Shown: positions 3,496 to 60,707, counted from the first letter of the stretch. The stretch: 64,000 nt of DNA from Mobula hypostoma (GCF_963921235.1 NC_086097.1:121894001-121958000); one strand, 5' to 3'. Numbers and translations are program-made. The notes: generated by a model not told the origin, from the sequence alone.

Positions 3496-4339
3496 GCATC
3501 AATTGTTGCTTCTCGTACATTTTATGTATTGCACTGAACTGCAACAAAACAATTAATCTTATGACATATGTCAATGATAATCCTGAGTCTGATTCAGATT
3601 CTATTTCTGTTTAGGCATGAGTCAATTGGCAAAATAAGAGGAAGGTGAAGGTAGTAAGAAAAGACGAACAAGCTGGTTGAATGACTGAATAAAACAATGT
3701 GGTGAAGTATAAAATAATACATGTTAACAGCAAAAAATATAAAGAGGTAACATAGACTAAATGGCACAGTCCTAAGGGGTATGAAGGAAAAGAGTGATGT
3801 GCACATGTACTGTATATTTTTCTCCTCTGTTAGTGAGGCACATGGGATATTAGGATGTGGGTTGAGAGAACATTTACTTGAGCTGTTCAAGATCATAACT
3901 TGATTTGATGGGGAGATGCAGGATCAGAAAACTGATGCCAAAAGTAAAAGGGGAGATGTAAAGGCTTTCCTTTTTAGGTGATGATCTGGAAGAATTTGCC
4001 TGTAAGCGTGGAAGAAACCAAATCATTCACTGCCTTCAGAAAAAAAATTGATAAACGTTTGAGAGAATATAATTTTTAAACTAAGAGTAAAGAGCAGGGG
4101 AACAAGAATAAATGGGATTACTCTACAAGGAGCTAGCATTGATTTGATAATCTGATGGCTTCTATGTTGAAATGACTCTACTAGGAGCTCAATGTCCATT
4201 TTACATTTCTTGACATCCTATCTCCTCTTACTTGCAGAATGCTCTGAAACATGTTGCTTCCTGACCTAGATTCTTCAATCACTCCATGCACAACACCGGG
4301 AGGTCTAGCTCACAGACTGTAGACACACCAACCTTTAAT

Positions 4340-4730
4340 TCATCATCATTATGTGTCATGTCATATGTTGTAGGTAATCATGGTGCATTGAGCATGATTG
4401 TTCTTGGCAAATTTGCCACTGCCTTCTGGGTAGTGTCTTTACAAGACTGGTGACTCCAGCCATTATCAATGAGATCAGAGATCTTCAGAGATTGTCTGCC
4501 TGGTGGTCAGTGTTTGCATAACAAAGACTTGTGATATGCTCTAGCAGCCCATACGACCATTGTCCACCTGCTTCCATGGCTTCACATGACCCTGAATGGC
4601 GGGGGGGGGAGGGAGTGGTGCAGCAGAGAGGGTAAGCATGTGCTGCACCTGTTCCAAGGGCACCCTACAGGCTAGCAGGGGGAAGGAACGCCTTGCACAT
4701 CCTTTGGTAGAGATGTACCTTCACCCTGTC
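4340..4730 (-). mobile_element. Non-autonomous RTE-related SINE-like repeat
   Basis: Short (CAT)n tail at left, ggcaaatttgccactgccttct motif typical of RTE-derived SINEs, GC-rich structured 5' part. Family assignment is from recall. Confidence 0.5.
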
Positions 4731-4824
4731 ACACATCATTTCAATTAATGTGGATTACAGGAATGGTGCAGTGGCCTGTACAGAGGCACTGTTGGTTCAA
4801 GTCCCAGTCTAGATATTTACAGTA

Positions 4825-5845
4825 TAGAACATTATAGTACAGTACAGACTCTTTGTCACACCAATATTGTGATGACCTCGTAACCATCTCTATGATCAAT
4901 CTAACCCTTTCCTTCTATACAGCCCTCCATTTTACGATCAACTATGTGCCTGTTCAAGAGTCTCAAATGTCCCTAATGTATTTGCTTCTTCGACCGCTCC
5001 AGCAGAGTGCTCCATAGACCCACCACACTCTCTGTTGGGGGGGGGAACGTGCCCTTGTCTTCCCCCTTTTCTTTCATCCAATCACCTTAAAATAATACCC
5101 CCTTGTATTAGCCATTGGTGCGGTGGAAAAACGTCTCTGGCAATGCAGTTGATCTATGCCTCATACCATCTTGACAGCTCTATCAAGTCACTTTTTATTC
5201 TCCTTCCCTCCAGAGAGAAAAAGCTTAACTTGCTAATATTCTCGTAAAACATGTCCTCTAAACCAGGCAGCATCCTGGACCATCCACTGCACCAACTCTA
5301 AAGCTTCCATATCCTTTCTATGATGAGGTGACAAGAAATGAACACAATATTCTTAGCAAGGTCTAACCAGGGATTTTTTTCAGATGCAATATTACTTCTT
5401 GAAGTCAATCTTTGACTAATGAAATTAAAAACACCATACAACTTCTTAACAATCCTATCAACCTGCATGTCAACTTTGAGGGATCTGTGGACATGGACCT
5501 GAAGATCCCTCTGTTCCTGCATACTGCTAAGAATCCTATCATTAACCCTGTATTCCATCTTCAAGTTTAATCTTCCAAAGTGAATCACTTCACATTTTTC
5601 CACATTGAACTCCATCTGCCTCTTCTCAGCCCTGCTCTGTATCCTGTCTATGTGCCTTTATAAACTACAACCACTTTCTACACAATTCACAAAACCACTA
5701 ACCTTCATCTACAAATTTACAAACCCAGCCTTCTACTTCCTCATCTGGGTCATTTATAAGAATCATAAAGAGCAGGAGTCCCAAAACACATCCCTGCGGA
5801 ACACCTCTGGTACCGACCTCCAGGCAGAATACACTCCATCTACAC
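4825..5845 (-). mobile_element. CR1 LINE 3' portion (decayed RT C-terminus and tail)
   Basis: ORF 5298-5615 MEFNVEKCEVIHFGR...QRDL..VHRSLKV; CR1-type 3' tail near 4825. Confidence 0.85.
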
Positions 5846-6384
5846 AAGCTACCACTCCAGCACAGACTTCAGGGAAGGATGGTTTCATAGATTAGTGATA
5901 ATCCAGACACCATAGTCTTCAAATGGAATCATAAATGAGCCATGTGCCAATCTTGTAGATGACCCATGGAGCTCCTGTTAATGTCCTGTCCAATAGATCA
6001 TAGAACATTATAACACAGTACAATCCTTTGGCCCATGACGTGTCAACCCTTAAACCTGCACTAAGATCAATTTATCCAATTTAAAAGCAACATCACAGTT
6101 GTTACCACTTTGAACTTCATGCGACTTTCCTATAATCAAATTGTTCCTGAGTGCAAGCATACTTCTGTAAACCTGCTTCGGGACACCAGTCTCTTGTTTC
6201 TTCCAACAAGTGTAAAATCTCAGATCATATGCTCATTATTCCCTGATGTGCACTGCTTAATGTAATCTGAAAGAGAATCAGATGTAAAATTTAATGCCAA
6301 TCAATATGTTCATACTGAGACAGGATTTTAACTTTCTCCTTTGAAAACCATGCATATTTCTGAACAGTCCAGAGAAAATTTGAG

Positions 6385-7923
6385 GAACACACATCAAAGT
6401 TGCTGGTGAACGCAGCAGGCCAGGCAGCATCTATAGGAAGAGGCGCAGTCGACGTTTCAGGCCGAGACCCTTCGTCAGGACTAACTGAAGGAAGAGTGAG
6501 TAAGGGATTTGAAAGCTGGAGGGGGAGGGGGAGATGCAAAATGATAGGAGAAGACAGGAGGGGGAGGGATGGAGCCGAGAGCTGGACAGGTGATAGGCAG
6601 AAGGGGATACGAGAGGATCATGGGACAGGAGGTCCGGGAAGAAAGACGGAGGGGGGGGGTGACCCAGAGGATGGGCAAGAGGTATATTCAGAGGGACAGA
6701 GGGAGAAAAAGGAGAGTGAGAGAAAGAATGTGTGCATAAAAAAGAGTAACAGATGGGGTACGAGGGGGAGGTGGGGCCTAGCGGAAGTTAGAGAAGTCAA
6801 TGTTCATGCCATCAGGTTGGAGGCTACCCATACGGAATATAAGGTGTTGTTCCTCCAACCTGAGTGTGGCTTCATCTTTACAGTAGAGGAGGCCGTGGAT
6901 AGACATGTCAGAATGGGAATGGGATGTGGAATTAAAATGTGTGGCCACTGGGAGATCCTGCTTTCTCTGGCGGACAGAGCGTAGATGTTCAGCAAAGCGA
7001 TCTCCCAGTCTGCGTCGGGTCTCACCAATATATAAAAGGCCATATCGGGAGCACCGGACGCAGTATATCACCCCAGTCGACTCACAGGTGAAGTGATGCC
7101 TCACCTGGAAGGACTGTTTGGGGCCCTGAATGGTGGTAAGGGAGGAAGTGTAAGGGCATGTGTAGCACTTGTTCCGCTTACACGGATAAGTGCCAGGAGG
7201 GAGATCAGTGGGGAGGGATGGGGGGGGGGACGAATGGACAAGGGAGTTGTGTAGGGAGCGATCCCTGCGGAATGCAGAGAGGGGGGGGAGGGAAAGATAT
7301 GCTTAGTGGTGGGATCCCGTTGGAGGTGGCGGAAGTTACGGAGAATAATATGTTGGACCCGGAGGCTAGTGGGGTGGTAGGTGAGAACCAGGGGAACCCT
7401 ATTCCTAGTGGGGTGGTGGGAGGATGGAGTGAGAGCAGATGTACGTGAAATGGGGGAGATGCGTTTAAGAGCAGAGTTGATAGTGGAGGAAGGGAAGCCC
7501 CTTTCTTTAAAAAATGAAGACATCTCCCTTGTCCTAGAATGAAAAGCCTCATCCTGAGAGCAGATGCGGCGGAGACGGAGGAATTGCGAGAAGGGGATGG
7601 CGTTTTTGCAAGAGACAGGGTGAGAAGAGGAATAGTCCAGATAGCTGTGAGGGTCAGTAGGCTTATAGTAGACATCAGTGGATAAGCTGTCTCCAGAGAC
7701 AGAGACAGAAAGATCTAGAAAGGGGAGGGAGGTGTCGGAAATGGACCAGGTAAACTTGAGGGCAGGGTGAAAGTTGGAGGCAAAGTTAATAAAGTCAACG
7801 AGTTCTGCATGCGTGCAGGAAGCAGCGCCAATGCAGTCGTCGATGTAGCGAAGGAAAAGTGGGGGACAGATACCAGAATAGGCACGGAACATAGATTGTT
7901 CCACAAACCCAACAAAAAGGCAG
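6385..7923 (-). mobile_element. 5'-truncated Penelope-like retroelement (Neptune type): RT C-terminus, Cys linker, GIY-YIG endonuclease, 3' pseudo-LTR with hammerhead
   Basis: FLRYIDDCIG RT motif; PCKRNKCYTC linker; GVIYCVRCSRYGLLYIGET GIY-YIG; stop at 6778; frameshift(s) in the G-runs near 7220-7290. Confidence 0.93.
6447..6482 (-). ncRNA. Minimal type-I hammerhead ribozyme motif (intact core)
   Basis: Minus strand AGTC-CTGACGA-AGG-GTCTCGG-CCT-GAA-ACGT-C-GACT: helix I AGUC/GACU, CUGANGA core, helix II AGG/CCU, GAAAC, palindromic helix III ACGU, GUC cleavage triplet. Confidence 0.88.
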
Positions 7924-8329
7924 CAAAAAAAAAAACCCAACAAAAATTTGAGGGTCTGGTTGACCACTTTTCCTGTAGCATGCAGAAAGACCAGAGTGGG
8001 ACTTGTGTCTTTTATGTTCCTTTTCTCTGCATCTACCATTTGAAACTCGGATGGAGGCTAACGAGAAACAGAATGAAGATAGTACCTCGTGGCAGGCTAC
8101 CTTGCTCATTCTAATCTAAAGAAGGGTGACAGTGCATGGAAACTGAAGGATTTTACAGTCAGCATGGAGGAGAGTGTACTGGGGGATGCAAACTGAATGA
8201 GCAGCTCACAGAGGAGTTGAACAAATTCTGATCTCTCGAGAGAGCAGAGATCACATATTCAGAGATGTGGAGATTTATTTGTAGCATGACTTTGTTAATT
8301 GAATGGATGTAGTTGGGGTGTTATGGAGC

Positions 8330-8820
8330 ATCCAGGGAGGGCTAGCACCTCTGGTAAAGGGACCATTGAGGGGCTGCTCAGTCACCTTTAGTCCCCACCA
8401 GGCACTGAGAGCTCAGCTGTGGCTCCAAGTAATGCAACAGCAGCCACACCCCAGTACTTCACTTCGACAGATGGCCTAAGCCAGGTGAGGGTAGTCAGCG
8501 GGCCTCGTACTCCAGTGAGATAGGGATGTGCCTGGCTTAACATGTGATATTAGCTCCAGTGGAGCTGGGCAGGTGAGATCAACAGTGAGATCCAATGATT
8601 AGGAAGGCAGTTCTGCAATGCTTTGTGGAGAACAAAGGGCACGGTCATCCACTGCAACAATGGAAGGCCCCAGGTACGATGACTACTCATTTCACTGGAT
8701 CTGGTCTTCCAAGGCTAAGGGAATAGAACTGCCCAAGTACAATGGCTTTTCCACTTTGAAGAACTCTTTTGCACAGATTTCTCTGTCATTATCTGATGCG
8801 ATGAACAATCAATTAATCAT
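8330..8820 (+). mobile_element. Probable non-autonomous RTE-related interspersed repeat
   Basis: GC-rich structured 5' segment (gggagggctagcacctctggt...), no real ORF, short repeat tail. Assignment from recall only. Confidence 0.4.
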
Positions 8821-11021
8821 CGATCTTGGTGTTAGGGAACCTTCAGTGGATGATACTCGGGGTGAGAAAATTCATTCTGTACATCTACCTTATTTTAAAC
8901 ACCAGCCTCTTTGCCATTGCCTCTATCCTCTGGCACGAAAACCACCCTCCCTCCACTGACTCTGCTTTCCTTCCCATAGCCTTGGGAAAGCAGCCCATAA
9001 TTAAAGACCCCTCTCACCCAGTCAGTCTTTCTTCACCACCATCACCCCCCCCCCCCACATTTTGTAAGAGATATAAAAAGCTTGAATACATGCACTGCCA
9101 GGCTCGAAGACAGTTTCTATCCAGCTGTTAGAAGACTCTTGTATGATGAGAATGGACTCTAGATCTCTGAATCTTATTTATCATGGGCTTTGCAAGTTAT
9201 TTATCTACCTGCACTGGAATTTCTCTGAAACTATAACACCACTTTCTACATTCTGTTATTGTTTTTTTTCCTCTTTGTACTGCCTTGATGCACGTCTGCT
9301 TGGAATGATCTGTCTAGGTGGCATGCAAGTATATCTTGGTACATATGGCAATAACAGCAGTCACTGCAATATGCCTCTCTGGTCAATAGAGCTCTTAGTT
9401 ATAATGTGCCTTGGACAGGCATGAAAAGAGCAATAGATGAAGGGTTCTCGATCTTTGCTGCCATTGCATGAGTCATTGGATTACTAAGGCAGTGTCTGAT
9501 AAGCAATAATTATGAATGAGGCCACAACATATAAAACCCAAGGACAATCTCAATTTCAAATGTCTCCTTTCGAAGCAAATCATTACCCCTTTCATGTATC
9601 ATTTGCCAAAGTATCACATTTAAGCTCTTCCTCAGAGTTGTGTGGTTATGACGATGGACACTGTCAGAATGTGACAGGCATATTACCCGTTTTAGGTAGG
9701 TGTAAAGTGAAGGTAATGGGGTGAAGACATATTCTGTAGGGCTTAGAGAAGAGCCTCCTTTGGACTGTTTTAATTCAGAGGAAGTTTCCTGATTGGGAAG
9801 TTGTAACAACAGCCAGCAGTGATTCAGCAGCTGCCACCTGAGCTGCCTTGATTTTCTCTATGGTTCAATGTGGTCAGTACCCACCACCTTTCTCAATTGG
9901 CATTTCATATTAACCGTTCACTGTTTGGGAAATTAGTGTAGAGTGCAGTGGCTCATTTGCAAAGAATGCATGGCTACTGCACAAGAAAGGGAACATATAC
10001 ACAAAAAAGGGAACCTTGGGTAGGAGGCTACATTGAATCCACGGCAGTCCCACCAGACTTAACAACAGTCACTTTTCCCAAGTATCAGGCTGATCAACAC
10101 CTCTACCCATTATCCCATCCCTCCACCACTACTGTATCATTTCCTGTCAGAGTTACCTTCTATACAGATACTCCTGTACCTAACGTTGCTTTATGTACAT
10201 ACAATCAGTCTAAGTATATAAGGTAAGATTATGTATTTATATTTGTGTTATTTATGCTTTTTGTCTTTTTATGCTGCATTGGATCCAGAGTAATAATCAT
10301 TTCATTCTCCTTTACACTTGTGTACTGACAGATGACAACAAACAACAAAGCTGAACACTCCAAACCTAATTTTGTACCTTGTGTTCCTACTTTGCCCACT
10401 GAAGAAATATTTTATTTTGCATCTGAAAATGAGTTTTGTTTCTAATTTTGGAAAATCTTCTGCACATCTACGCCTTTTGATTTTCAATATGTTTCTATGA
10501 GACCCACCTCCCCCACCCCCACCATTTTTCTAAACTCCAGTGAGTACAGGCCCAGAGACAACAAACCCTTAATACATATTAACCAGTGCATTCCTGCGAC
10601 TGTAATGGAGGGCAGAAATGAGAACAAACCGTGATAGCAAACTGAAGTGCACTCCACATTTAATGCCAATTAACTTATCACTTCTGTGGAACTGGGCCAA
10701 CAGAAAAGGACTGTGACCTTGCATTATTTCCTGGACTCATTCTGAGCCGAGTGATCTGCCACGAACAACATCAACTAATCTCATAATTTCTGTGCTGTTT
10801 TTGACATTTTGTCAGTTCATCTTGACTAATCTTGAGCTTCTCGATGTTGCACACTGATTCATTAAGATAAGTTCTCTACGTGTGCGAGAGCAACCTCAAA
10901 TGTCACATAATTCACTATGTTCACTGCCCTCTGAGCAGTGAATGGTTCAGAAAAGGACACACTGGTATTAATTTTAATTGCGTGGAAGCTAATAAGGTGT
11001 TTGTCCCCTTGGTTCACTTGC

Positions 11022-11136
11022 CTTGTAAGCTATACAGTTCGCTGACACTGTTCTGCCTGGTAATGTGGTGCCAGTACGCACTCCGAGGAAGTGTTATCGT
11101 CATTAGTGTCATCTCATCACTCGGACTGGACTGCAG
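11022..11136 (-). CDS. DOK6: Docking protein 6, internal coding exon (115 bp): LQSSPSDEMTLMTITLPRSAYWHHITRQNSVSELYSLQ(G)
   Basis: Acceptor tttgtttctgtctttcag; starts in phase 0, matching the upstream exon. LPRSAYWHHITRQNSV matches DOK6. Donor is AG|GCAAGT. Not in the ORF track. Confidence 0.92.
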
Positions 11137-11230
11137 CTGAAAGACAGAAACAAAATTCAGTGTCAAATACCATATTCAGCCAAAAGAACATCTTTATAAG
11201 AATATATGACATCAAAAGTGAAAGGCTTAA

Positions 11231-11600
11231 ACATCAACACAAGAGATTCTGCAGATGCTGGAAACCTTTAGACGCACGCACACGCGGAAGGAGCACATGC
11301 TGGCAGGTGGCGGGTGAAACCAGGTGAAGGGGAGGTGGCTGGGGGAGGGGGAATGCAGTAAGAAGCTGGCAGGTGATAGGTGGAAGAGGAAAAGGGCTGA
11401 AGAAGGAGGAAACTGATAGGAGGGGAGAGTAGACGCTGGGAGGAGAGGAGAGTAGCCGCTGGGAGAAGGGGAAGGAGGAGGGGTACCAGCAGGAGGTGAT
11501 GGGCAGGTGAAGAGAAGGGGTAAGAGGGGAGCCAGAATGGGGAACGGAAAGAGAAAGAAAGAGGAGGGGGGAGAAATTGCCAGAAGATAGAGAAATCGAA
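11231..11600 (-). mobile_element. Degenerate Penelope 3' end (end of GIY-YIG, polypyrimidine tract, terminus)
   Basis: gagaaattgccagaagatagagaaatcga resembles the IDFSNF terminus; purine-rich tract on + strand; terminal aagagattctgcagatgctggaa. Confidence 0.7.
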
Positions 11601-11649
11601 TTTTGTGCTATCAGATCGGAAACTATCCAGGTGGAAAATGTGACCATGA

Positions 11650-12045
11650 GGCTAAGCACAGCTCCAGTGCCAAATTTAAATTTGCTGATGACACCACTGC
11701 CATGGGCCAAATCAAAGATGGTGACGAACCAGCATATAGCAGAGAGATTGAAAATCTGGCTGAGTGGTGCCACATCAACAAACTCTCATTCAATGTCACC
11801 AAGACCAAAGAGCTCTTTATGGACTTCAGGAGGAAGAAACCAGAGATTCATGCGCCAGTCCTCATTGAGGATCAGAGGTGGAGAGGGTCAGCACCTCTTA
11901 ATTCCTCAGTGTTAACATTTCAAAGGATCTGTCCTGGGCCCAGCAACTAAGTGCCATTACAAAGAAAGCGCGGCAGTGTTTCTACTTTCTTAGAAGTTTG
12001 CAAAGATTCAGAGTGACATCTAAAACTTTGACAAACTTCTATAGA
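11650..12045 (+). mobile_element. Rex/Babar LINE RT fragment
   Basis: KFADDTTAMGQIKDGDEPAYSREIENLAEWCHINKLSFNVTKTKELFMDFRR. Confidence 0.85.
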
Positions 12046-12439
12046 GAAAATTGCCATGATTCCCTTAATTATTTGGGACATTATGCCACTTAATTAGGAC
12101 AGGAGACTGTTGCTGAACATTCACTAACTAGCATCAGTTACGCACACTTACGTGGCTGTTAGATACCACACTGTGCTTAGAACAAACAGCTCTTAAATAG
12201 CATCAGTTGCATGTGTTTGTATTAAAAAAGCGGTGATTTTTGTCACTAATAGTTGGCAAGAAATAAGCAGTGAGACTATTCAGAACTGTTTTCCTCACTG
12301 GTTTCAAACATTCAGGTTTGAAGATGCCAAAAACAGCTGGGAATGAAAACAAAATTATTTTGCTACCTCAACAAGTTAGAAATTGTAAAGAATTTGAAAG
12401 TATCAACAAACATCTTCAAAACTAAGATTTGGAGGATTC

Positions 12440-12560
12440 AAGCAACACACATCAAAGTTGCTGGGGAATGCAGCAGGCCAGGCAGCATCTCTAGGAAGAG
12501 GTACAGTCGACGTTTCAGGCTGAGGCCCTTCGTCAGGACTAACTAAAGGAAGAGTTAGTA
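12440..12560 (-). mobile_element. About 120-bp Penelope 3'-terminal fragment carrying a hammerhead
   Basis: Near-identical to 6385-6500 (aacacacatcaaagttgctgg...cgtcaggactaact). Confidence 0.88.
12505..12540 (-). ncRNA. Minimal type-I hammerhead ribozyme motif (intact core)
   Basis: Minus strand AGTC-CTGACGA-AGG-GCCTCAG-CCT-GAA-ACGT-C-GACT; differs from the 6447 copy only in loop II. Confidence 0.88.
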
Positions 12561-13429
12561 AGATTCAATTGTCTGAAGCATTGTATGAAGGCAGTTCATT
12601 ATCTGCACTCGTGTCTGCACTGATTTTGCTGATTTACAGATAATAAAAGGAACAGGGCAGCATACAATGGATGAGTTCTGTTGATAATTATTAGGAACTA
12701 ATACGATTTTATTGTACGGGTAATATTGGTAGTGTTCTAATCTGTACTGTATTTCATTTAAATACATAATTTGTTACTCATTGTCTTTTCAATACCTCTT
12801 CAAACAGTTCCATGAAGCTTTGGCTAATTGGGGTAGTCGCTTAGTTGATCCAAAAGGTACTAGTCCCAATGTGTCCCAATTAACTAGATCTACTGTACAT
12901 GTCCTGAACAAATGTATATAACTTCACTCACCTCTACTCTGAACTGAATCCACAACCTACAAACTTACTTACAAATACTCTACAATTCATTTTCTCAGAA
13001 TCCTTTCTATTTTGCACAATTTGTCTTTCTCTTGCACATTGTTTACTTGACCATCTTTGTTTATTTATAGTTTTTTTCATACATACTATTGTATTTATTT
13101 ATCCTGTAAATGCCTGCAAGAAAATGAATCCCACGCTGGTACATACTAACATACAAAAAATTTACGGTGACTTCCTTGAGTGTTCTGTAATCGCACAATC
13201 CAGGAATGATAAATCCACAGCTCGGGGGGTGGGGGCTGATTGTTAGTAGGCAAAATAAACCAAACAGGCAGACAATTCAGGAGACCCTCGAGGGTATCTT
13301 GTTCTCTAACCCATGTTTACTTCTGAGTACTATGGACAGCGGCCAGTCAGAACTAGAGCATCACAGATGGTTCTGCTGTACAGGCAGAGAGGAAATGATT
13401 AGGAAACTAATAATTTCAGATGGTTCTAT

Positions 13430-16400
13430 ATTTCTTTCTGTCTTGTTTCGTCCTCAGGAGTGGTAATGGAACTATTGCTATAAGAAGTCATTTCTGTATG
13501 ACTCATGGAGAGACTTGTCACTGAGAGCCTAGAATGAACTCCAACTTCTCTGTAGCTGCACAGATACCAGAAGCCTGCCTCAAGTCCCTGCCTTCTGCTG
13601 ATGTCCTCCACATTCCACGTTTGAGTGTGTTGCATTGTGATATGCAAGGAGGAGATTGGCGAGCTTCTGATTCAGTGTCAGTGTAGAGTGTTCTGCTGAC
13701 GTTGCTCGCAGTGCATTGTTCAGACTCCGGACAAAATTCTCCACCAAGTCATTTGTGACTGGTACAGTGCAGATGTAATATGTCTTATTCCATTCATTTT
13801 CAGGAATGACTGAAAGTGTTCCACAACAAACTTGTGATCGTCAATGACTAAGTGTTCTGGAACACCAGTCCTTGAGAAGAGGCTTCTCAACACATCAACA
13901 GTGTGTGAAGATGTAGTGGAGGTTATTGGGGACACTTCTGGCCATACTGTGGCTGTATCGACTACCACCATGAAATTTGTGCCCATGAATGGTCTGACAA
14001 AATTCACATGAATCCTCTGCCGGGCAATGCAGGCCATTCCCAGGGATAGAGAGGCGCTGCTGTTGGCACTATCTGGATGTGTTGGCATCCCAAACAGTGC
14101 ATGCAAGCTTATCAATCTGCTGATCTATCCCAAGCTGCCAGACAAAGCTCCTACCCAATGCTTTCATTTTGACCATGCCTAAATAACCGGCAAGTAGATA
14201 TTCCAACATTTTAGCTGTCAGCTAAGATGGTAAATAACTCTCAATCTCCACATAAGGTAACACTCGTCAAGGGCAAATTCATGTGGGCTGTGGTAAAAAT
14301 GGGGTAACTGAGATTTCAGCTGCACATTTTAGCCATTTTGGTTTGCCATATAGACCTGAGACAATATGGCATCTTTTCTGGTTTCTCTTTAGATCATCTC
14401 TGCCATAAAAGGGAGACTTTCGCTTTGCATTAGGGAAAATGCTCATTTGTAAATCAAAAGAAGTGTTTTCATTTGTAAATTTTTCAGGTAATTCCTGATC
14501 CATGGGTAAATGGAACAATCAATCAGGATTTCCATGATTGGATGTCCTTTCGAATTTGATCTTGTAATTGTGTCCTCCAAGAAAAACAGCCCATCTCTGC
14601 ATTTGCGCTGCTGTGGTTAGTGGAACACCCTTCTGTGGATAAAAAACGGACGCTTGGGGTTGATGATCAGTAATGAGAGTAAACTCTCCCCCATACAAGT
14701 ACTGGTTGAAATGTTTTACACCCCAAACCATTGGCCAGTTACCCCAACCTCAATGGTTGGGAAAGTGTTGGATGGAGTCTATTATTAAGGATGAGGTTTT
14801 GAAGTATTTGGAGACTAATGATAAAATAAGTCAAATTCAGCATGGTTTCTGTGAAGGGAAATCATGCCTGACAAATCTTTTAGAGTTCTTCAAAATGTAA
14901 CAAACAGGATGGACAAAGGAGAGGCAATGGATATCATTTACTTGGATTTTCAGAAGGCACTTGATAAGATGCCACAGATGAGGCTGCTTAACAAGATAAA
15001 ATCCTATGGCTTTACAGAAAATATAATGGCATTGATAGTGGAAAGGCTGACAGGCAGGAGGCAGCAAATGGGAATAAAAGGGGCCTTTTCGGGTCAGTTT
15101 TCAGAGAGTAGTTGTGTTCTTGGGGGTCAGTATGGGGACCACTGTTTTTCACATTGTTTGTTAATGATTCAGATAAAGGAATTGATGACTTTGTGGCAAA
15201 GTTTGTGGATGATACAAACATAGGTAGCACTGAGGAAGCTATGCAATTGCAGTAGGACTTAGACAAATTGGAAGAATTAGAAAAAAAGTGAGAAAGAGTG
15301 AGAAAAATAGTGTTGGAAAATGCATTTTGGTGAAAGGAAAAATAATGCGGACTGTTACCTAAATGAGGAGAAGGTTCAAACGTCAGAGATGTAGAGGGAC
15401 TTAGGAGTCCTCATGCCAGACTCCCAGAAGGTTAATTTACAAGCTGAGTCTGTAGTAAAGAAGGCAAATGCAACGTTGCCATTTATTTCAAGGGGAATAA
15501 AATATAAAAACAACGAGATAATACTGAGCCTTTATAAGACACTAGTCAGGCTGCACTTGGAGTACTGTCAACAGTTTTGGGCCCCATATCTCAGAAAGGG
15601 TGTGTTGTCATTGGAGAGAGTCCAGAGGAGGTTCACGAGGGTGATTCCGGGAATGAAGAGGTTAACGTATTGAGAGTGTTTGGCAGTTTTGGGTCTGTAC
15701 TCACTGGAATTTAGAAGAATGTGGGGGGAGGGATCTCACTGAAACGTACTGAATGTTGAAAGGATGGGATAGGGTAGATGTGGAGAGGATGTTTCCTGTG
15801 GTGGGGTGTCCAGAACTAGATGGCACAGACTCCAAATTCAGGGGCGACCCTTTAGAACAGAGAGTAGTAAACCTGTGGAATGCTCTGCCACAAACTGCAG
15901 TGGAGGCCAAGTCTATGTGTATATTTAAGGTGGAAGTTGATCGTTTCCAGATCTGTCAGAGCATCAAATGATGTGGCGAGAAGACAGGTGTATCGAGTTG
16001 ATTAGGATCCGGGATCAGCCATGATGGAACACGGAAGAGACTCAATGGACTAAATGGCCTAATTCTGCTTCTATGTCTTATGGACAGGGCATCTCTATCA
16101 ACCTGTGGGTAATTTTGCTCTGCAGCAGTAAGGGACTGTGATGCAATGGTTATGAGGCATTCACTTCCATCACTCATAACATGTAACATGACAGTAACTA
16201 TATCATAAGGCGAGGTGTCTCCGACAAGCTTCACTGGCCAATGTGGATTATATTGTGTGAGCAGTGTCTGATGTCACCATGTCTTTAATCTTTTGGAAAT
16301 ATATCTCACACTGCTTTGTCCATTACTATTTCTTCCTGATCTGCGGAAATGATTTCGAACGGTAGAGCACAGTGGAGAAGTTTTGCAGGAACCTATTATA

Positions 16401-18710
16401 GTAATTGACAAATCCTAAAAAGGTCCACAACTATGGACGATTGTGTGGTCTTGGAGCATCCACCACTGTTTGAATTTTCTCAGTACACTTGTGTAAATCT
16501 TGCACATCAGTGGTGTGACTATAGTAAGTGATGCTTGCTTTGAAGACTTCACAATTGTTGAGTTGTGCTCTAATCTTTTTAATGCTGTCTTGAGATGTTA
16601 AATATGTTCTTTGTTGTCCTCACTGGTAACAATGATGTCATCCAGGTAACACTGAGTGCCTGGGCAACCTTGTAGCACTTGGTCCATTCCTTTCTGCAGG
16701 TGCAGATGCTACTCCAAAATTAAGTCTATTATGATGATAAAGCCCTTTGTGGGTGTTCATGGAGAGAAACACTTTGGACTCTTCTTCCAATTCCATCTGT
16801 AGGTAGGCCTCAGCCAAGCTCACTTTGCTGAAATGTTTCCCTCCAAGAAGGTTTGCAAATATATCTACAATCCTGGGTAGAGGGTATTGATCTAGTTTCA
16901 GTTCTGGATTCATGGTGATATTAAAATTACCACAGATCCTGATAGACCCATTCTTCTTGGCTACTGGGACCACTGGTATTGCCCACGGGCTGCACTCAAA
17001 CTTGGAAGTAATTCCCTTAGCGTCCTTGTGATCTAGCTCACTGGCTACTTATTCACAGATAGTATAAGGAACTGGATGGGCTTTGTAAAACTTGGGTGTG
17101 GCATTTTGATTTAACACTATTTTACCGCTGATATATTTGAGTTTTCCAATGCCATCCTTGAACACTGTTGTGGCATCATCCAGTACCTTCCTTAATTCAT
17201 TTTCAATTGACTCTATTGCAGGGGATGTGGCATGCAAATTCTGGATGGATATCCAATCAATTCGTAGTTGTCTCAGCCAATTGCATCCCCACAATGCTGG
17301 CCCTCCTGTTTTTACCACATACAAGCCCAATGTGGCCTGTTGGTTGTTGTATTTCACTGTTACAAATGTCATTCTCAAAAGAGCTATCTTTTTTCTTGTA
17401 TAATTTCTTCATTGAATATCTGCAGGTTTCAGTTTAGTTTCTTTGAAATGCCATTCAAGCTTATTTTGTGGAATGACTGAAACAGCTGAGCCAGTGTCCA
17501 GTTTCATTTTAATTAATTTGCCATTCACTTCTGGTGTAAGGCATGTTGCTTGTCTTTTGATAATTTTCACATTGTAAACCTCAAGACTATTCAGTCCTGT
17601 GTCACTCTCATCGTATTTTTCCTCAAAAGCATGCAGATTATTGCTCTTTTTGAAACTGCAACTTGACTTTTTATCTTTTACTTTTCCCTGTACGGTCCAT
17701 TTATCTTTGTCTGTCCAACACGCTCTTTGTACGTGTCCTAATTCATTGCATTTTCTGCAAGTTTCACCTTTAAACCTGCATTGGTCTGCTGTATGTGAAC
17801 CCCTGCCACAACAATAATATAATTTTTTTGGCCAAGCATTTGTGTTTGGACTTTCTAATTTTGTTCACACTCATTTTCATTCCTGACTGCAATTGCATCT
17901 TTGACTGCTGTTTCCATTGACACAGCGATTTCAACTGCACTTTTAATGTGAGTTGTACTTCAGTTATGAGCCATTTTGAATGCTTTCTTGTAAGATTCCA
18001 CAATCTGAAATTTCTCTCAGTGCATCATTAAGTCCATTGCTGAACTGACAATGCTCAGATGAGCTCTTCAATTCAACCACATAAACTGAAACCTACTCCC
18101 ATTCCTTTTGATTCTGCAATGAACAATGGTTTCAGTTCTAAATATTCCTATATTATATTTACAATACCAGCAAAGCTCTTTTGGCTAGTTTGGAGCAGTC
18201 AAACTTCTGAACAAACTGTATACTCTTCCACCAATTGCACTCAGAAAAACTGACACTTGTTTCTTATCAGTTATTCCACTTGCTTTAAAATACTGCTCAA
18301 TTTATTCAGTACACATCCCCCAGTTATCTGTTGTGCAATTGAATGTGCCTAGCTTTCCAACGTAGCCAGCCATTTCTGCTTTTTTATATATGATTATGAT
18401 CACCTACCTGGTGCTCACTGTTTATAAAACTTTTCCATTTTCCACCTCTATTTTCTTGGCCATCTTTCTGCTTTTGTGAAGGAAAAAATGTGCTGCGCTT
18501 TAAAAAAAAGCAAACATCTCTCTCTCCCTTCCCCCCCGCCTTTCTGAAGAGAGATGTGTTGCACTTTTTTTTAAAATGCGATGGTCTTGCTGAATTTCAA
18601 CAGGTAGGTAGCAATCTCGGTTTCATTATGAGACTACTACTTTGCTACTGTTATGTTTTGTAACTCCAAAACATAAAATTAATTGAAAGAAAAACACAGG
18701 GGCCAGGGAG
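13430..18710 (-). mobile_element. Decayed Gypsy LTR retrotransposon (gag-PR-RT-RH-IN), interrupted by a CR1
   Basis: gag start MAGYVGKLGTF near 18373; double Zn-knuckle near 17720-17815; protease LDTGSAVS near 17490; RT VPVAKKNGSIRICGNF (16638-16973); RNase H LITDHQP (14519-14731); integrase QRIHVNFVRPFMG (13720-14115); partial 5' LTR end near 18648-18710. Confidence 0.9.
14731..16083 (+). mobile_element. 5'-truncated CR1 LINE inserted into the Gypsy RNase H
   Basis: QHGFCEGKSCLTNLLEFF, YLDFQKA, LVRLHLEYCQQFW; tail ctaattctgcttctatgtcttatgg. Gypsy QVDRDAL/VWGVKHF is split across the junctions. Confidence 0.9.
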
Positions 18711-18794
18711 CTAGCTTTGCTGCTGGTGGTTTATTGCTTGTTGTGTTCTGTTTTGTTAGTAATCTGTGTTACTCTGCTGAACATCGGGGGGCTG

Positions 18795-19228
18795 CTCCTC
18801 CACACTACCAAGAATCCTGCCATTTACTTTGTACTCTGCCTTGCAGTTTGTCCTTCCAAATTGTACCACCTCACACTTCTCCGGGTTGAACTCCATCTGC
18901 CACTTCTCAGCCCACTTCTGCATACTATCAATGTGTCTCTACAATCTTCGACAATCCTCTACACTATCCACAACACCACCAACCTTTGTGTCCTTTGCAA
19001 ACTTGTCAACCCACCCTTCTACCCCCACATCCAGGTCATTAATAAAAATCACGAGAAGTACAGGTCCCAGAACCGATGCTTGTGGGACACCACTAGTCAC
19101 AATCCTCCAATTCAAATGGACTCCCTCCACCACGACCCTCTGCTTTCTGCAGGCAATCCAATTCTGAATCCACCTGGCCAAACTTCCCTGGATCCCATGC
19201 CTTCCAACTTTCTGAATAAGCCTACCGT
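18795..19228 (-). mobile_element. CR1 RT internal fragment
   Basis: SGVPQASVLGPVLLVIFINDL...KFAKDTK. Confidence 0.85.
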
Positions 19229-19234
19229 GCAGAT

Positions 19235-19530
19235 TTGGATTAGCTTTTTTTGTCACATGTACATTAATACATCAAAATGTACATTTTTTGCCTCAAAAAC
19301 AAACACAGTCTGAGGATAGTGCAGGAGGAAGCCTGTGTGTGTACTATGCTTCTGGCACCATTATAGCATGCCCATAACTCACTAATCTGTTCGTCTTGGG
19401 AAAGGCGCAGCACCAGGTGAAACCCACATGGTTACAGAGAATATGTACAAACTCCTTATAGACAGTGGCAACAGCTGATCCCCGATTGGTGATCGCTGGT
19501 ACCATAAAACAATTGCGCTAACTGCTACAA
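19235..19530 (-). mobile_element. V-SINE-like tRNA-derived SINE
   Basis: aaacccacatggttacagagaatatgtacaaactcctt V-domain motif; same family as 27900-29540. Confidence 0.6.
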
Positions 19531-20479
19531 TACATTTGTTGTTACTTAGTCTGCTTTCAAAGCATTCCAAACAATCATAAGACAACAAGACCATAAAACA
19601 TGAAAGCAGAATTATGCCATTCAGCCCATTGAGTCTGCTCTGCATTTCATCATGGCTGATTCATTTTCCTCTCAACTTCATTCTCCCCATAACCTTTCAT
19701 GAACCTATCGACTTCCATCAAATACAATGACCTGGCCTCCACAGCCGCCTGTGGCTACAAATTCTACACCTTCTGGCGAAAGAAATTCCTCCCCATCTCT
19801 GTTCTAGGTAAACGTCCCTCTCTTCTGAGGCTGAGCCCTCTGGCTATGGACTTCCCCACTATAGAAACATCCTCTCCACATCCACTCTATCTAGGCCTTT
19901 CAACATCTCCATTTCCAAAGGGATCCTTTCATTAAACATATCTTAACCTAACTCCTTCTCCATTTTCCGCAGGGAATGAAGAAGAAAAACGGAGAATACA
20001 AAAGCATTTCAAAAAGTGTGAGTGAATTAGAAGAAAAAAATTTGGAAGTAAGTTTCTGACAAGAGCAAAAAGCTCCAAGGCAGTGACAGTAAAAGAATTT
20101 CCATTACCTTAATATTAACTGAGTTAATGTGAAATATAGAGCAGACAGAGAATTTCTAAGTAAATAAATTTAAATGAAACTGCAGACGCTGGAAACTCTG
20201 AGCAAATTGGACAGTAACAGTGGAAGGAAAAGAGTAAATATTTCAAGTTCAATACAGTTTCTCTTTCCACAGATGTTGCTTTGCTGATGAGTATTTATAG
20301 GTTTAATTACACAACTCCTAAACTGTTAGAAAAACACTTTTATCCATTGTGCGGTAAGCCTACAAGAGAGGAAGGACTCCCACTATCTAGACCATGCTCT
20401 CATCTTCCAGTTGTCATTGGGAAGGAGGTATGTACAGGAACCTTAGGTCCCACATCATCAGGTTCAGAAACTATTATAC

Positions 20480-27899: not shown

Positions 27900-29540
27900 T
27901 ACCATTATTTATTTATTGAGATACAGCACAGAAATGGTCCTTTGAGCCATGCCACACACTAACTTGCTGATTTAACCTTCGCCTCATCCCTGAACAATTT
28001 ACAATGACCAATTAACCTACCAACAGGGGGTGGGGGTGAAACTGGAGTACAGGTGTTCCCCGCTTTTCGAACGTCCGCTTTACGAAACCTCACTGTTATG
28101 AAAGACCTACATTTGTACCCTGTTTTCGCTTTCGGAAGGTGTTTTCACTGTTACAAAAAAAAAGCAGTGTGCGATAAAAAATCAGCGCTCGAAAAAATCA
28201 GCGTGCGATAAAAGGCAGCGCGTGCCCCGAGCAGCTGCTTTCCCCGGATGCAGAACGGCATTGCTTTAACACGTGCTGCGAGCAGCCGTTTGCAAGATGA
28301 GTTCTGAGGTATCGGAAAAGCCTGAAAGAGCTCGTAAGGGTGTTACACTTTGTGTGAAACTAGACATAATTAAGTATTTCGATCGTGGTGAATGAAGTAA
28401 GGACAAAGTGAGTTTGGCTTGTGGAAGCTGACGAACATGATGTTGAAGAGGTTTTGGCATCCCATGACCAAGAACTGACAGATGAAGAGCTGATGCAATT
28501 GTAAGAAAAAAGAATAACAATCGAAACTGAATGAGTAATGATAAAGTACGACTTTAATTTTGAAAGGGTATGTCGGTTTAGGGCATAATTGCAAGATGGT
28601 TTGAGTGCTTAAAAAGAACTGTATGATAGATAAATGCTCGAGGCTCAGCAGTCAAGCAAGCCTTCCACATCAGCCACAGCAGACGACGAACCTCCACCTT
28701 CGACAGCGAGGGGAGCAGTCATAGAAGAAGATGAGCTGCCTGCTCTAATGGAAACAGACGATGACGAGATGACACCCCAGTGTTCCACCACCCCAACCCC
28801 CAGGCCATGGACAGATACCGATTCACAGAGAATGCAACGGTAGCTGGGAGGCACACAGCACATCTTTAAGAAAAAAGCCGAAATAAACTTGCTAATTAAT
28901 TAGGTGCCATCCCACATGTAAATGTTGGCCGAGATCAGAGACGACGTAATCGGAAATCGACACTGATCTGGGCCGACAATTACGTGCCGGACAGCACCTA
29001 ATTAATTAGCTTGTTTGTTTCGGCTTTTTTCTTAAAGATGTGCTGTGTACCTTCTGGCTATCACTGAACCCCTGCGTTCTTCACAGCAATGTATCGCTCA
29101 GCGGCCTGGAGGCTGGGGGCCACTGCACCACCCAACCTGCGACAACTCGGTCTAACATACCATCATCAGTGTGCTCTGCGCTATCTTCCCGATTCCCGTA
29201 AGTGATACTGCACTATACATACGTTATTTCTATTTTATATCAGCTGTGTATTTTTACGTGTTATTTGGTATGATTTGGTAGGTTATTTTTGGGTCTGAGA
29301 ACGCTCACAAAATTTTCCCATATAAATAAATGGTAATTGCTTCTTCGCTTTACGACATTTCGGCTTATGAACCATTTCATAGGAACGCTCTACCTTCGGA
29401 TGGCGGGGGAAACCTGTACCCGGAGGAATCCCATGTGGTCACGGGGAGAACGTACAAACTCTTTACAGATAGCGGCAGGAATTGAACCTGGGTTGCCTGT
29501 ACTGTAAAGCGTTATGCTAACCATTACACTACACTACCCT
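27900..29540 (-). mobile_element. V-SINE (HE1-like) split by a Tigger derivative
   Basis: gaaactggagta|cccggaggaatcccatgtggtcacggggagaacgtacaaact rejoins across the insertion; tRNA-like head near 29470-29540. Confidence 0.75.
28050..29416 (+). mobile_element. Tigger/pogo internal-deletion derivative with a long internal palindrome
   Basis: TA TSD; TIRs CAGGTGTTCCCCGC / GCGGGGGAAACCTG; remnants of the transposase N-terminal HTH (RKGVTLCVKLDIIKYFDRGE) and acidic C-terminus. Confidence 0.88.
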
Positions 29541-33849: not shown

Positions 33850-33982
33850 ACAGGAGGAAATCTGCAGATGCTGGAAATACAAGCAACACATACAAAATGC
33901 TGGAGGAACTCAGTAGACCCAGTAGCATCTATGGAAAAGAGTAAACTGTGGACATTTCGGGCTCAGACCCTTCATCGAGACT
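33850..33982 (-). mobile_element. Short Penelope 3' fragment with degenerate hammerhead
   Basis: Minus strand AGTC-TCGATGA-AGG-GTCTGAG-CCC-GAAATGTC; terminal ccagcattttgtatgtgttgc. Confidence 0.75.
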
Positions 33983-33989
33983 CATTGAT

Positions 33990-35278: not shown

Positions 35279-36265
35279 ACACACACAAAATGCTGAAGGA
35301 ACTCAGCTCCCTATGCGACTCCCTTGTCCATTTGTCCTCCCCATCCCTTCCCTCCGATCTCCCTCCCGGCACTTATCCTTGTAAGCAGAACAAGTGATAC
35401 ACCTGCCCTTACACTTCCTCCCTCACCACCATTCAGGGCCCCAAACAGTCCTTCCAGGTGAGGTGACACTTCACCTGTGAGTCGGCTGGGGTGATATACT
35501 GTGTCCGGTGCTCCTGATGCAGCCTTCTATATATTGACGAGACCCGACGCAGACTGGGAGACTGTTTCCCTGAACACCTACGCTCTGTCTGCCAGAGAAA
35601 GCAGGATCTCCCAGTGGCCACACATTTTAATTCCACGTCCCATTCCCATTCCGATATGTCTATCCACGGCCTCCTCTACTGTCAAAATGAAGCCACACTC
35701 AGGTTGGAGGAACCAACACCTTATATTCCGTCTGGGTAGCCTCCAACCTGATGGCATGAACATCGACTTCTCTAACTTCTGTTAATGCCCCTCCTCCCCT
35801 TCTTACCCCATCCCTTATCTATCTATCTATTTACTTATTTATTTGATTTTTAAAAAAATTTTTCCCCTTTCTTTTCTCTCTCTTTTTTCTCCCTCGGTCT
35901 CTCTCACTATAACTCCTTACCTGCTCTCCATCCTGTGGGCTCCCCTCCTTTCTTTTCCCCTAGGCTTCCCGTCCCATGATCCTCTTCCTTCTCCAGCCTT
36001 GTATCCCTTTTGCCAATCAACTTTCCAGCTCTTAGCTCCATCCCTCCCCCACCCCCCTGTCTTCTCCTATCATTTCGGATCTCCCCTCCCTGCCAACTTT
36101 CAAATCTCTTACTATCTCTTCTTTCAGTTAGTCCTGACGAAGGGTCTTGGCCCAAAACATCGATTGTACCTCTTCCTATAGATGCTGCCTCGGCTGCTGC
36201 GTTCCACCAGCATTTTGTGTGTGTTGCTCGAATTTCCAGCACCTGCAGATTTCCTCGCGTTTGCA
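35279..36265 (+). mobile_element. 5'-truncated Neptune-type Penelope with inverted terminal segment at its 5' end and a mutated hammerhead (36130-36165)
   Basis: GIY-YIG remnant ending QPDGMNIDFSNFC; AGTCCTGACGAAGGGTCTTGGCCCAAAACATCGATT (GAAA changed to AAAA); highly similar to 6385-7260 in opposite orientation. Confidence 0.9.
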
Positions 36266-45195: not shown

Positions 45196-45334
45196 CCGTG
45201 TTTTTTTCTCCATCTCCAGCATCAGTTGCTCGTGTTGTTCGGCTATGGCCAGAGTTGCTGAATGTACCTTCTGATAGATGTTCTCTCCTTCCCGTGTCTG
45301 AAATGTAAACAGTCCCTCTCCCGTGTCACACATT
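45196..45334 (-). CDS. DOK6: Docking protein 6, internal coding exon (139 bp; end of PTB domain): (R)[46 protein letters not shown]
   Basis: Acceptor ttgtatttgtcatttgcag, donor GG|gtatgt. Peptide is closest to DOK6 among DOK4/5/6 as recalled; ends in phase 0 and joins the 11136 exon in frame. Confidence 0.95.
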
Positions 45335-46587
45335 CTGCAAATGACAAATACAACGAATGTCATAGTTTGTATCTTTGTTCTGGCAATCTACCTAGGCACT
45401 GCTGAAGTTAAACAATAGGAAGCATATACTACCAAATTAATTGTAACTCTAAGCATTACAGAGCAGTAGTCACTTGTTGCTCAAGTTCTCATCTCTTTTG
45501 CCCATAGGGTGGTGAATCTGTGGAAATCATTGCCACAGATGGCTGTAGAGGACAAATCATTGGGACTATAACCCTCCATACTTGACCATCCATGTACCTA
45601 TCCAAATTTCTCTTAAATGTTGAAATTGACCCTGCATCAAGTTGCACTGGCAGCTCGTTTCACCACCCTGAGTGAAGAAATTCCCCTTCATGTTCCTCTG
45701 AAACATTTCATCTTTCAACCTTAACCCATGACTGCTAGTTGTAGTCTGATACAACCTCCATGGGAAAAGCCTGCTTTCATTTACCCTATGAAAACCTCTC
45801 ATAATTTTGTATACCTCTACCAAATCTCCACTCAACCTTTCACATTTCAGGGAATGAAGCCCTAGCCTATTCAATCTTTCCATATAACTCAGTTCCTCAG
45901 GTCCCAGCAACATCCTGGTAAATTTTCGCCGCACTTTTTCAATTTTATTTACATCTTTCCTGTAAGTGGGTGACCAAAACTACACACAATACTTCAAATT
46001 AGGTCTCACCAATATCTTATACAACTTCAACATAACATTTCAACTCCTGTACTCAATGCACTAATTTATAAAGGCCAATGTGCCAAAAGATTCTTCATGA
46101 GCCTATCTAATTGTGACACCACTTTCAAGGAATTACATATCTTTATTCCTCGATCCCTCTATTCTACCACACTCCTCAGTGCCCTACTGCACTCCATGTA
46201 AGACCTACCCTGGTTGGTCCTCCCAAAGTGCAACACCTCACACTTGTCTGCATTAAATTCCATCTGCCATTTTTCAGCCCATTTTTCTCTGCTGCATTTC
46301 CTCACATCAACAGACACTGTGTCCATCTTTCGAGTAAATACAGATGCAAAAAATCAATTTAAGGTATTCCCCATCTCTTGCGGCTCCACACATAGAGTAC
46401 CACTCTGATCTTCCAGAGGTCCAATTTTGTCCCTTGTTATCCTTTTGCTCTTAATATAGAAGACCTTAGAATTCTCCTTCAGCTTGTCTGCTGGAGCAAC
46501 CTCATGTCTTCTTTTAGCCTTCCTGATTTACTTAAGTGTTTTCTTGCATTTCTTATACTCCTCATTTTCTCCTGCTTGCCTATACAT

Positions 46588-60604: not shown

Positions 60605-60707
60605 ATGTCCTGAAGACAGGTCATGGCCTGAAATATCAACTGTTTGTTCATTTCCATAGATGCTGCCTGATCCTGATGAGTTCCTCCAGCATTTTGTGTG
60701 TGTTGCA
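60605..60707 (+). mobile_element. Short Penelope 3' fragment with decayed hammerhead
   Basis: GTC-CTGAAGA-CAGGTCATGGCCT-GAAA-TATC-AACT...ccagcattttgtgtgtgttgc. Confidence 0.7.

Follow-up and report, generated by a model that had tools for sequence, protein, structure and literature searches.

Within a 64,000-nt stretch of the Mobula hypostoma genome (GCF_963921235.1 NC_086097.1:121894001-121958000; the window hereafter), a 115-bp exon of the docking protein gene DOK6 is bracketed by two minimal hammerhead ribozyme motifs that both lie on the DOK6 sense strand, the minus strand, which raises the question of whether these ribozymes act on the pre-mRNA of the gene that hosts them. A preliminary description of the locus had placed the motifs at 12505-12540 (copy A) and 6447-6482 (copy B), identified the exon and its GC donor, and proposed that the two hammerheads cooperate on one nascent DOK6 transcript. 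Direct reading and pattern matches confirmed both motifs at these positions, and the exon, its length, its donor and the spacing (1.37 kb on the upstream side, 4.5 kb on the downstream side) proved correct as well. Here we describe the motifs, their repeat context and copy number, the signatures of two independent insertions and the normal splicing of the exon, all of which were observed directly, and conclude that the motifs are very probably dimer-type minimal hammerheads near the 3′ ends of two separate 5′-truncated insertions of a young, high-copy Penelope-like element (PLE) family, with likely no part in DOK6 expression. The motif would serve, if anything, the RNA of the element itself, for which it has been proposed that tandem PLE transcripts are processed as dimers; copies A and B would be intact because they are young, and their bracketing of a DOK6 exon would be a coincidence.

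The 36-nt motif of copy A reads AGTC-CTGACGA-A-GGGC-CTCA-GCCT-GAAA-CGTC-GACT on the minus strand (12540..12505), and that of copy B (6482..6447) is identical except for GGGT-CTCG in helix II. The core C3-U4-G5-A6-N7-G8-A9 with G12-A13-A14 is complete in both copies (CTGACGA, GAAA), and both have a GUC cleavage triplet followed by GACU, which pairs with the AGUC located 5′ of the core (4 bp and a possible U-G). Neither copy contains helix III or loop 3, and the palindromic ACGU directly follows GAA. Reading helix II as a 4-bp GGGY/GCCU leaves the A that follows CUGACGA unpaired, as an extra nucleotide before position 10.1, and a U-to-C difference makes the fourth pair of this helix U-G in copy B and C-G in copy A. 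Searching both strands of the window with our own descriptor modelled on the published one (a 4-bp helix I, CUGANGA with or without a bulge after it, 3-8 bp in helix II, GAAA, palindromic 15.2/16.2, UH) returned exactly these two matches and none in 100 simulated sequences. Similarly, the core pattern CTGANGA-N13-GAAACGTC matched twice in the window, where 0.02 matches are expected, with at least two matches in 0 of 100 shuffles, and the 36-mer with up to 3 mismatches recovered the same two sites against 0.00 expected. This excess over chance is due to repeat copies and not to anything particular to the DOK6 locus. We also ran the covariance-model search that the preliminary description had suggested as a check: the Rfam hammerhead models (types I, II, III, HH9 and HH10) gave no match at the gathering score in the whole window and none at E<=10 in 12400-12650, as expected because those models include helix III. 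Weak plus-strand Rfam matches to PrrB/RsmZ and sR22 near copy A were far below the cut-offs and were rejected as chance.

On their sequence, copies A and B are members of the known class of PLE minimal hammerheads, with one departure. Like the motifs described by Cervera and De la Pena in 2014 (PMC4209133), they are type-I hammerheads with complete CUGANGA/GAAA cores, a GUC site, a palindromic ACGU instead of helix III and a helix I of 4-5 bp, they sit in the terminal non-coding part of an element with reverse transcriptase (RT) and GIY-YIG parts, and they occur mostly as dispersed singles with thousands of copies per genome. The traits of the class include an extra nucleotide before position 10.1 and a highly conserved G10.1-C11.1 pair (PMC4209133); in contrast, position 11.1 is U in copies A and B, which leaves a G-U or A-U closing pair. 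We treated U11.1 as a variant of a subfamily that would not bar membership of the class, since these copies share their descent with PLE tails that have C11.1 (copies C and E in Table 1). In addition, helix II has 4 bp here and 7-8 bp in the Schistosoma families.

The surroundings of copy B fit the assignment to PLEs. The open reading frame (ORF) at 6778-7302 encodes a GIY-YIG domain (PF01541; 23.9 bits, cut-off 22.6; E 5.2e-5) that ends approximately 300 nt upstream of the hammerhead. The RT-side ORF of copy B had no Pfam match and only a YIDD motif was found in it, and an ESM Atlas search with this ORF gave a lead only, to clusters with PF26215 and, in one of them, RVT_1. An RT-side frame, a GIY-YIG domain, a non-coding tail and a hammerhead without helix III together match the published PLE anatomy (PMC4209133). 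The earlier identification of a minimal, helix-III-less, dimer-type PLE hammerhead is thus upheld, with copy B lying 3′ of a GIY-YIG remnant and agreeing with the published descriptor except at position 11.1.

Comparison of the copies pointed to independent insertions. Homology between copies A and B covers only approximately 122 nt at 91.8% identity. The repeat of copy B begins at 7925, and 30 other places in the genome match no further upstream than this base; copy B is 98.4% identical to another genomic locus (L008) over 1239 nt. At 12 loci with exact motif matches, which represent 11 independent places, the 3′ end was the same in all, and the 5′ ends ranged from query base 481 to 1623; tail fragments of up to approximately 150 nt, like copy A, were found at 5 of the 11 places. 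A common 3′ end with scattered 5′ ends indicates the 5′-truncation pattern of target-primed reverse transcription. The separate truncations, the shared homology of only approximately 122 nt and the target-site duplication of copy B indicate that A and B arose by two separate insertion events. Copy A is flanked by TTGAATC at 12568-12562 and 12441-12435, and this repeat may be either its target-site duplication or the element's own tail. Three further PLE tails in the window, copies C, D and E, have broken cores, largely at the three CpGs of the motif, which argues against selection on a copy after its insertion; the intactness of a copy would mark its youth.

The abundance of the family sets what chance alone would produce. 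In the 3,475,679,493 bases of genome searched, the 31-nt motif core with two free loop positions had 21,539 forward and 21,596 reverse exact matches (43,135 in all; reversed control, 0 and 0), the version of the motif with C11.1 had 7,689 and the tail 21-mer had 90,133. Among 30 copies picked by the tail 21-mer alone, the core was kept in 14 and the core with both helices in 8; in the remaining 16 it had been disrupted by 5′ truncation, an inversion junction or point changes. The family is unusually large and young in the M. hypostoma genome. At the genomic density, 0.79 exact motifs are expected per 64 kb, and the probability of at least two is 0.19. Approximately 1,590 same-strand pairs separated by no more than 6,058 bp are expected genome-wide by chance; in agreement with this expectation, 4 same-strand pairs within 6 kb occurred among the first 100 matches listed, which span 6.2 Mb.

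Two further patterns emerged from these matches. The most amplified subfamily has U11.1, with a wobble or A-U pair closing helix II, and the older copies C and E have C at this position. Among the first 100 matches listed there were also 15 opposite-strand pairs within 6.1 kb, 12 of them in minus-then-plus order; in 7 of these 12 the motifs lie only 39-88 bp apart in a head-to-head inverted arrangement (for example, loci L002/L003, L018/L019 and L038/L039), and the inversion junction can fall within the hammerhead. Such head-to-head pairs fit a reverse transcription that starts from both cut strands of the DNA, as PMC11167929 reports for an Anolis PLE in vitro.

We then considered the DOK6 transcript itself. 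The frame around the exon is 78% identical to the protein named docking protein 6 by NCBI in Heterodontus francisci, which bears out the DOK6 identity given earlier, and the exon is bounded by a cag acceptor and by a GCAAGT donor (CAAG|GCAAGT at 11020-11021). Evidence on splicing came from Logan assembled contigs, the form of all 12 runs listed, with the kind of run guessed; intronic stretches that no contig covered were left out of the evidence. In a 1494-nt contig of run X1, positions 496-612 correspond to 11021-11137 without differences and positions 612-754 to 45196-45338, so that the letters preceding 45196 in the contig are the start of the 115-bp exon; the same exon-exon junction is present in contigs of runs X5 (1226 nt) and X3 (1113 nt). 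The X1 contig extends 495 nt past the GC donor without matching 6300-11020. These exon-joining contigs indicate that the 34,059-nt intron that contains copy A is removed precisely, that the exon is joined onward and that the runs contain spliced RNA. Both introns flanking the 115-bp exon are removed normally. Splicing at the GC donor was seen in the X1 and X5 contigs.

The proposal of the preliminary description was that the two hammerheads of a nascent DOK6 transcript pair as a double hammerhead and cut after 12509 and 6451, releasing an exon-containing RNA that is circularized or competes with splicing. Its arithmetic holds, as the fragment from cut to cut, 12508..6451, measures 6058 nt when counted from C17 at 12509 and 6451. 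The idea draws on the intactness of both motifs, on their common strand and sense orientation, and on a published proposal for PLEs in which two terminal-repeat hammerheads of a single transcript, spaced approximately 3 kb, work as a dimer (PMC4209133); moreover, ends of the hammerhead type are described as substrates of the tRNA ligase RtcB in retrozyme work (PMC7229834). However, the pair derives from two unrelated insertion events, approximately 1,600 such pairs are expected per genome by chance, intact motifs are common, and copy A lies within a 34-kb intron that is removed precisely. Splicing of the intron with copy A could proceed as soon as the exon 1.4 kb downstream has been made, and copy B is transcribed 4.5 kb later, so that A and B would not have to stay together on the same molecule, which we count against the proposal. 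The known circles made by hammerheads in animals measure 170-400 nt (PMC7229834), not 6 kb, and a literature search turned up, by title and abstract, no case of exon excision by PLE hammerheads.

A back-joint of 12649 to 6386 (back 6264) in runs X1 and X2 was rejected as a trace of a circle, since it has 13 foreign letters, a shorter side of 36 letters, lies in repeat sequence and is off the predicted cut sites; we read it as another genomic copy. Short contigs cannot identify the predicted circle joint in any case, because thousands of copies in the genome (L040, for example) have the very motif that the back-joint would create.

Nearest-neighbour folding also argued against cooperation in cis. 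In the double-hammerhead junction only helix II is local; helices I and III both have to join one copy to the other, through 12 bp spread over three short stretches. The double hammerhead of A with B reached -11.2 kcal/mol, whereas the best dimer fold was an extended inactive duplex at -28.2 kcal/mol, which places the double hammerhead 17 kcal/mol above it, and the helix III pairs had a probability of approximately 1e-9 in the dimer ensemble. As monomers, the copies folded into inactive rods (-11.7 kcal/mol for copy A and -10.0 kcal/mol for copy B) in which the core GACG pairs with the CGUC at the cleavage site, so that local hairpins sequester the core. A C at position N7 gives this hammerhead family a built-in inactive alternative fold. 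Folding is weak evidence here, because the energies ignore tertiary structure and would speak against PLE hammerheads generally. Taken with the independent insertions, the number of chance pairs, the common intactness and the exon-joining contigs, it leaves the release of a 6058-nt RNA from one DOK6 transcript, its circularization and its competition with splicing unsupported, and we regard this course of events as very improbable.

A different possibility is that each intronic copy occasionally pairs in trans with other nuclear RNAs that carry a PLE tail, so that the DOK6 pre-mRNA would be cut at a low rate, as a generic cost or noise of every sense intronic copy. Partner RNAs exist, since tail and element-body sequences are present in thousands of contigs: the region 6300-12700 collected 11,357 to 19,622 records in runs X1, X2 and X5, nearly all on its repeat parts. 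Cleavage that depends on a dimer is also the published behaviour of the minimal hammerhead class. Against cleavage in trans, slow ribozymes that cut within introns are not known to prevent splicing, the core is hidden in the predicted local fold, and position 11.1 is U instead of the C of the G10.1-C11.1 pair, which is reported to be highly conserved. Furthermore, single minimal hammerheads are inactive, and the in vitro activity of metazoan ones is low even as dimers and seen mostly at non-physiological Mg2+ (PMC4209133). In Anolis, RNA-seq reads neither begin nor end at the PLE hammerhead site (PMC11167929). We consider occasional cutting in trans unlikely.

A further possibility is that the motif of the U11.1 subfamily has lost catalysis altogether and persists, through recent copying alone, as a hammerhead-shaped relic that does nothing even for the element. 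In the dominant subfamily a G-U wobble closes helix II, and this version outnumbers the G-C one by 43,135 copies to 7,689, the minimum-energy fold of the monomer is an inactive rod, and among 16 distinct family sequences none of the 8 pairs of helices I and II changes on both sides, the family being too young to vary. However, tens of thousands of copies retain all 11 of the core positions together with the GUC site and the ACGU palindrome. In run X9, which carries a third organism label, contigs match the 36-nt motif and diverge exactly at its borders 6446 and 6482 (9 and 4 contigs, respectively), a hint that, between element lineages or species, conservation has been stronger in the motif than in its flanks. 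We therefore judge loss of all activity in this subfamily to be improbable, in about the same degree as cutting in trans.

Some points weigh against a purely incidental role of copies A and B. Each of the two cores is intact, both share one strand, the sense strand of the gene, and nothing in their sequence would forbid catalysis. Dimer cleavage in vitro has been reported for PLE minimal hammerheads (Lunse et al. 2017, as cited in PMC6765202 and PMC6466107). The spliced mRNA shows only that any cleavage is incomplete, and a cleaved minority would fit it too; low-level cleavage would be invisible, because assembled contigs cannot show the 5′ or 3′ ends of RNA. Finally, the probability of at least two motifs on one given strand of the 64-kb window is 0.06, which makes the arrangement mildly uncommon locally. 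Even with these points in the balance, two chance insertions of a young PLE family remain by far our preferred explanation.

Comparison with known systems places the locus among dispersed PLE copies. Minimal hammerheads sit in the terminal repeats of PLEs, approximately 4,000 of them in coelacanth and approximately 9,000 in Xenopus, and most are single dispersed motifs from truncated elements (PMC4209133); the 43,135 and 7,689 exact motifs counted here exceed those 4,000-9,000. For an Anolis PLE, insertion in vitro does not depend on cleavage by the hammerhead (PMC11167929). Non-LTR (long terminal repeat) retrozymes (PMC7229834; Li et al. 2026, 10.64898/2026.07.22.740005) likewise contain type-I hammerheads, which require dimers in vertebrates, and their ends are ligated into circles by a tRNA ligase, RtcB in the animal case; these sources propose an origin of vertebrate retrozymes from PLE terminal repeats and describe them as under-represented in introns. 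In contrast to the present locus, retrozymes form head-to-tail tandem arrays, with repeats of 51-972 bp, and yield circles of 170-400 nt. Here, two independent insertions lie 6 kb apart in unrelated host sequence, with an exon and other repeats between them, which is not a tandem array. Ultraconserved intronic hammerheads share the position on the sense strand of an intron in a protein-coding gene; they are single-copy, full hammerheads with helix III and loop contacts that are covered by Rfam models, whereas the motifs here are repeat copies without an Rfam match. The double hammerheads of ASBVd (avocado sunblotch viroid) and newt satellite 2 (Forster et al. 1988, as described in papers citing it) resemble ours in a weak or absent helix III, with two copies merging their helix III halves for activity. 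Their partners, according to those citing papers, are consecutive units of an oligomer a few hundred nucleotides apart, compared with 6 kb in a spliced pre-mRNA here.

Table 1. Hammerhead motifs, PLE copies and DOK6 exons in the window.
Feature	Position	Strand	Description and basis
Copy A, minimal type-I hammerhead	12505..12540	(-)	Helix I AGUC/GACU, core CUGACGA...GAAA; C17 = 12509
Copy B, minimal type-I hammerhead	6447..6482	(-)	C17 = 6451
Copy A, 3′-terminal PLE fragment of ~120 bp, extreme 5′ truncation	12442..12561	(-)	Sequence comparison; contig loose ends at 12436
Copy B, 5′-truncated PLE of ~1.54 kb	6386..7925	(-)	RT-side ORF remnant (YIDD), GIY-YIG remnant, C-rich 3′ untranslated region (UTR), hammerhead, tail
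Copy B, upstream 11-bp target-site duplication CCTCAAATTTT	7943..7953	(-)	Read from sequence; downstream copy at 6385-6375
Copy C, PLE tail, 84.5% identical to A	36107..36233	(+)	Antisense to DOK6; core broken, AAAACATC replacing GAAACGTC
Copy E, older diverged tail (70.9%)	33886..33988	(-)	DOK6 sense orientation; core broken
Copy D, older diverged tail (73%)	60607..60704	(+)	Motif CpGs decayed: GAAATATC; A at position 1.1
C-rich PLE 3′-UTR-like piece, with tail but without hammerhead	11236..11600	(-)	High repeat depth, loose ends 11236-11268
DOK6 exon, 115 bp, AG acceptor, GC donor	11022..11136	(-)	Encodes LQSSPSDEMTLMTITLPRSAYWHHITRQNSVSELYSLQ; contigs match 11021-11137 without differences
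Preceding DOK6 exon	45196..45338	(-)	tblastn of docking protein 6 (Heterodontus francisci); contig junction to 11136

Other repeats accompany these features. The C-rich piece without a hammerhead is in the sense orientation and ends approximately 100 nt upstream of the DOK6 exon acceptor; other copies of it in contigs continue into a PLE tail (loose ends 11264-11268). On the opposite strand to DOK6, 11591-11950 (+) holds an open frame resembling a fragment of a reverse transcriptase of the LINE (long interspersed nuclear element) type (…FADDTT…), which had no Pfam match at E<=0.01. In the 34-kb DOK6 intron, 29467-29538 (-) gave a tRNA-like Rfam match of 30.4 bits against a gathering score of 29, the only match at gathering level in the window, and may be the head of a tRNA-derived short interspersed nuclear element or a pseudogene.

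As it stands, the arrangement has little significance, as it is what chance predicts and the exon is spliced normally; what the locus offers is a published type of dimer-forming PLE hammerhead that can be recognized in raw sequence. As the genome holds over 50,000 intact minimal hammerheads and approximately 1,600 same-strand pairs within 6 kb, one may also imagine that sense intronic pairs throughout the genome cut pre-mRNAs as cis or trans dimers and that exon fragments with 5′-OH and cyclic-phosphate ends are circularized by tRNA ligase, a generalization that we hold to be very remote. In that event, ribozymes would offer a way, separate from back-splicing, of making circular RNAs that contain exons and of attenuating host genes. 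If cleavage in cis at this locus were true, transposon ribozymes would act directly in host pre-mRNA processing. The family thereby raises a genome-wide question, namely whether intact sense-strand intronic copies are counter-selected, which, if true, would be the first in vivo sign of cutting by minimal hammerheads.

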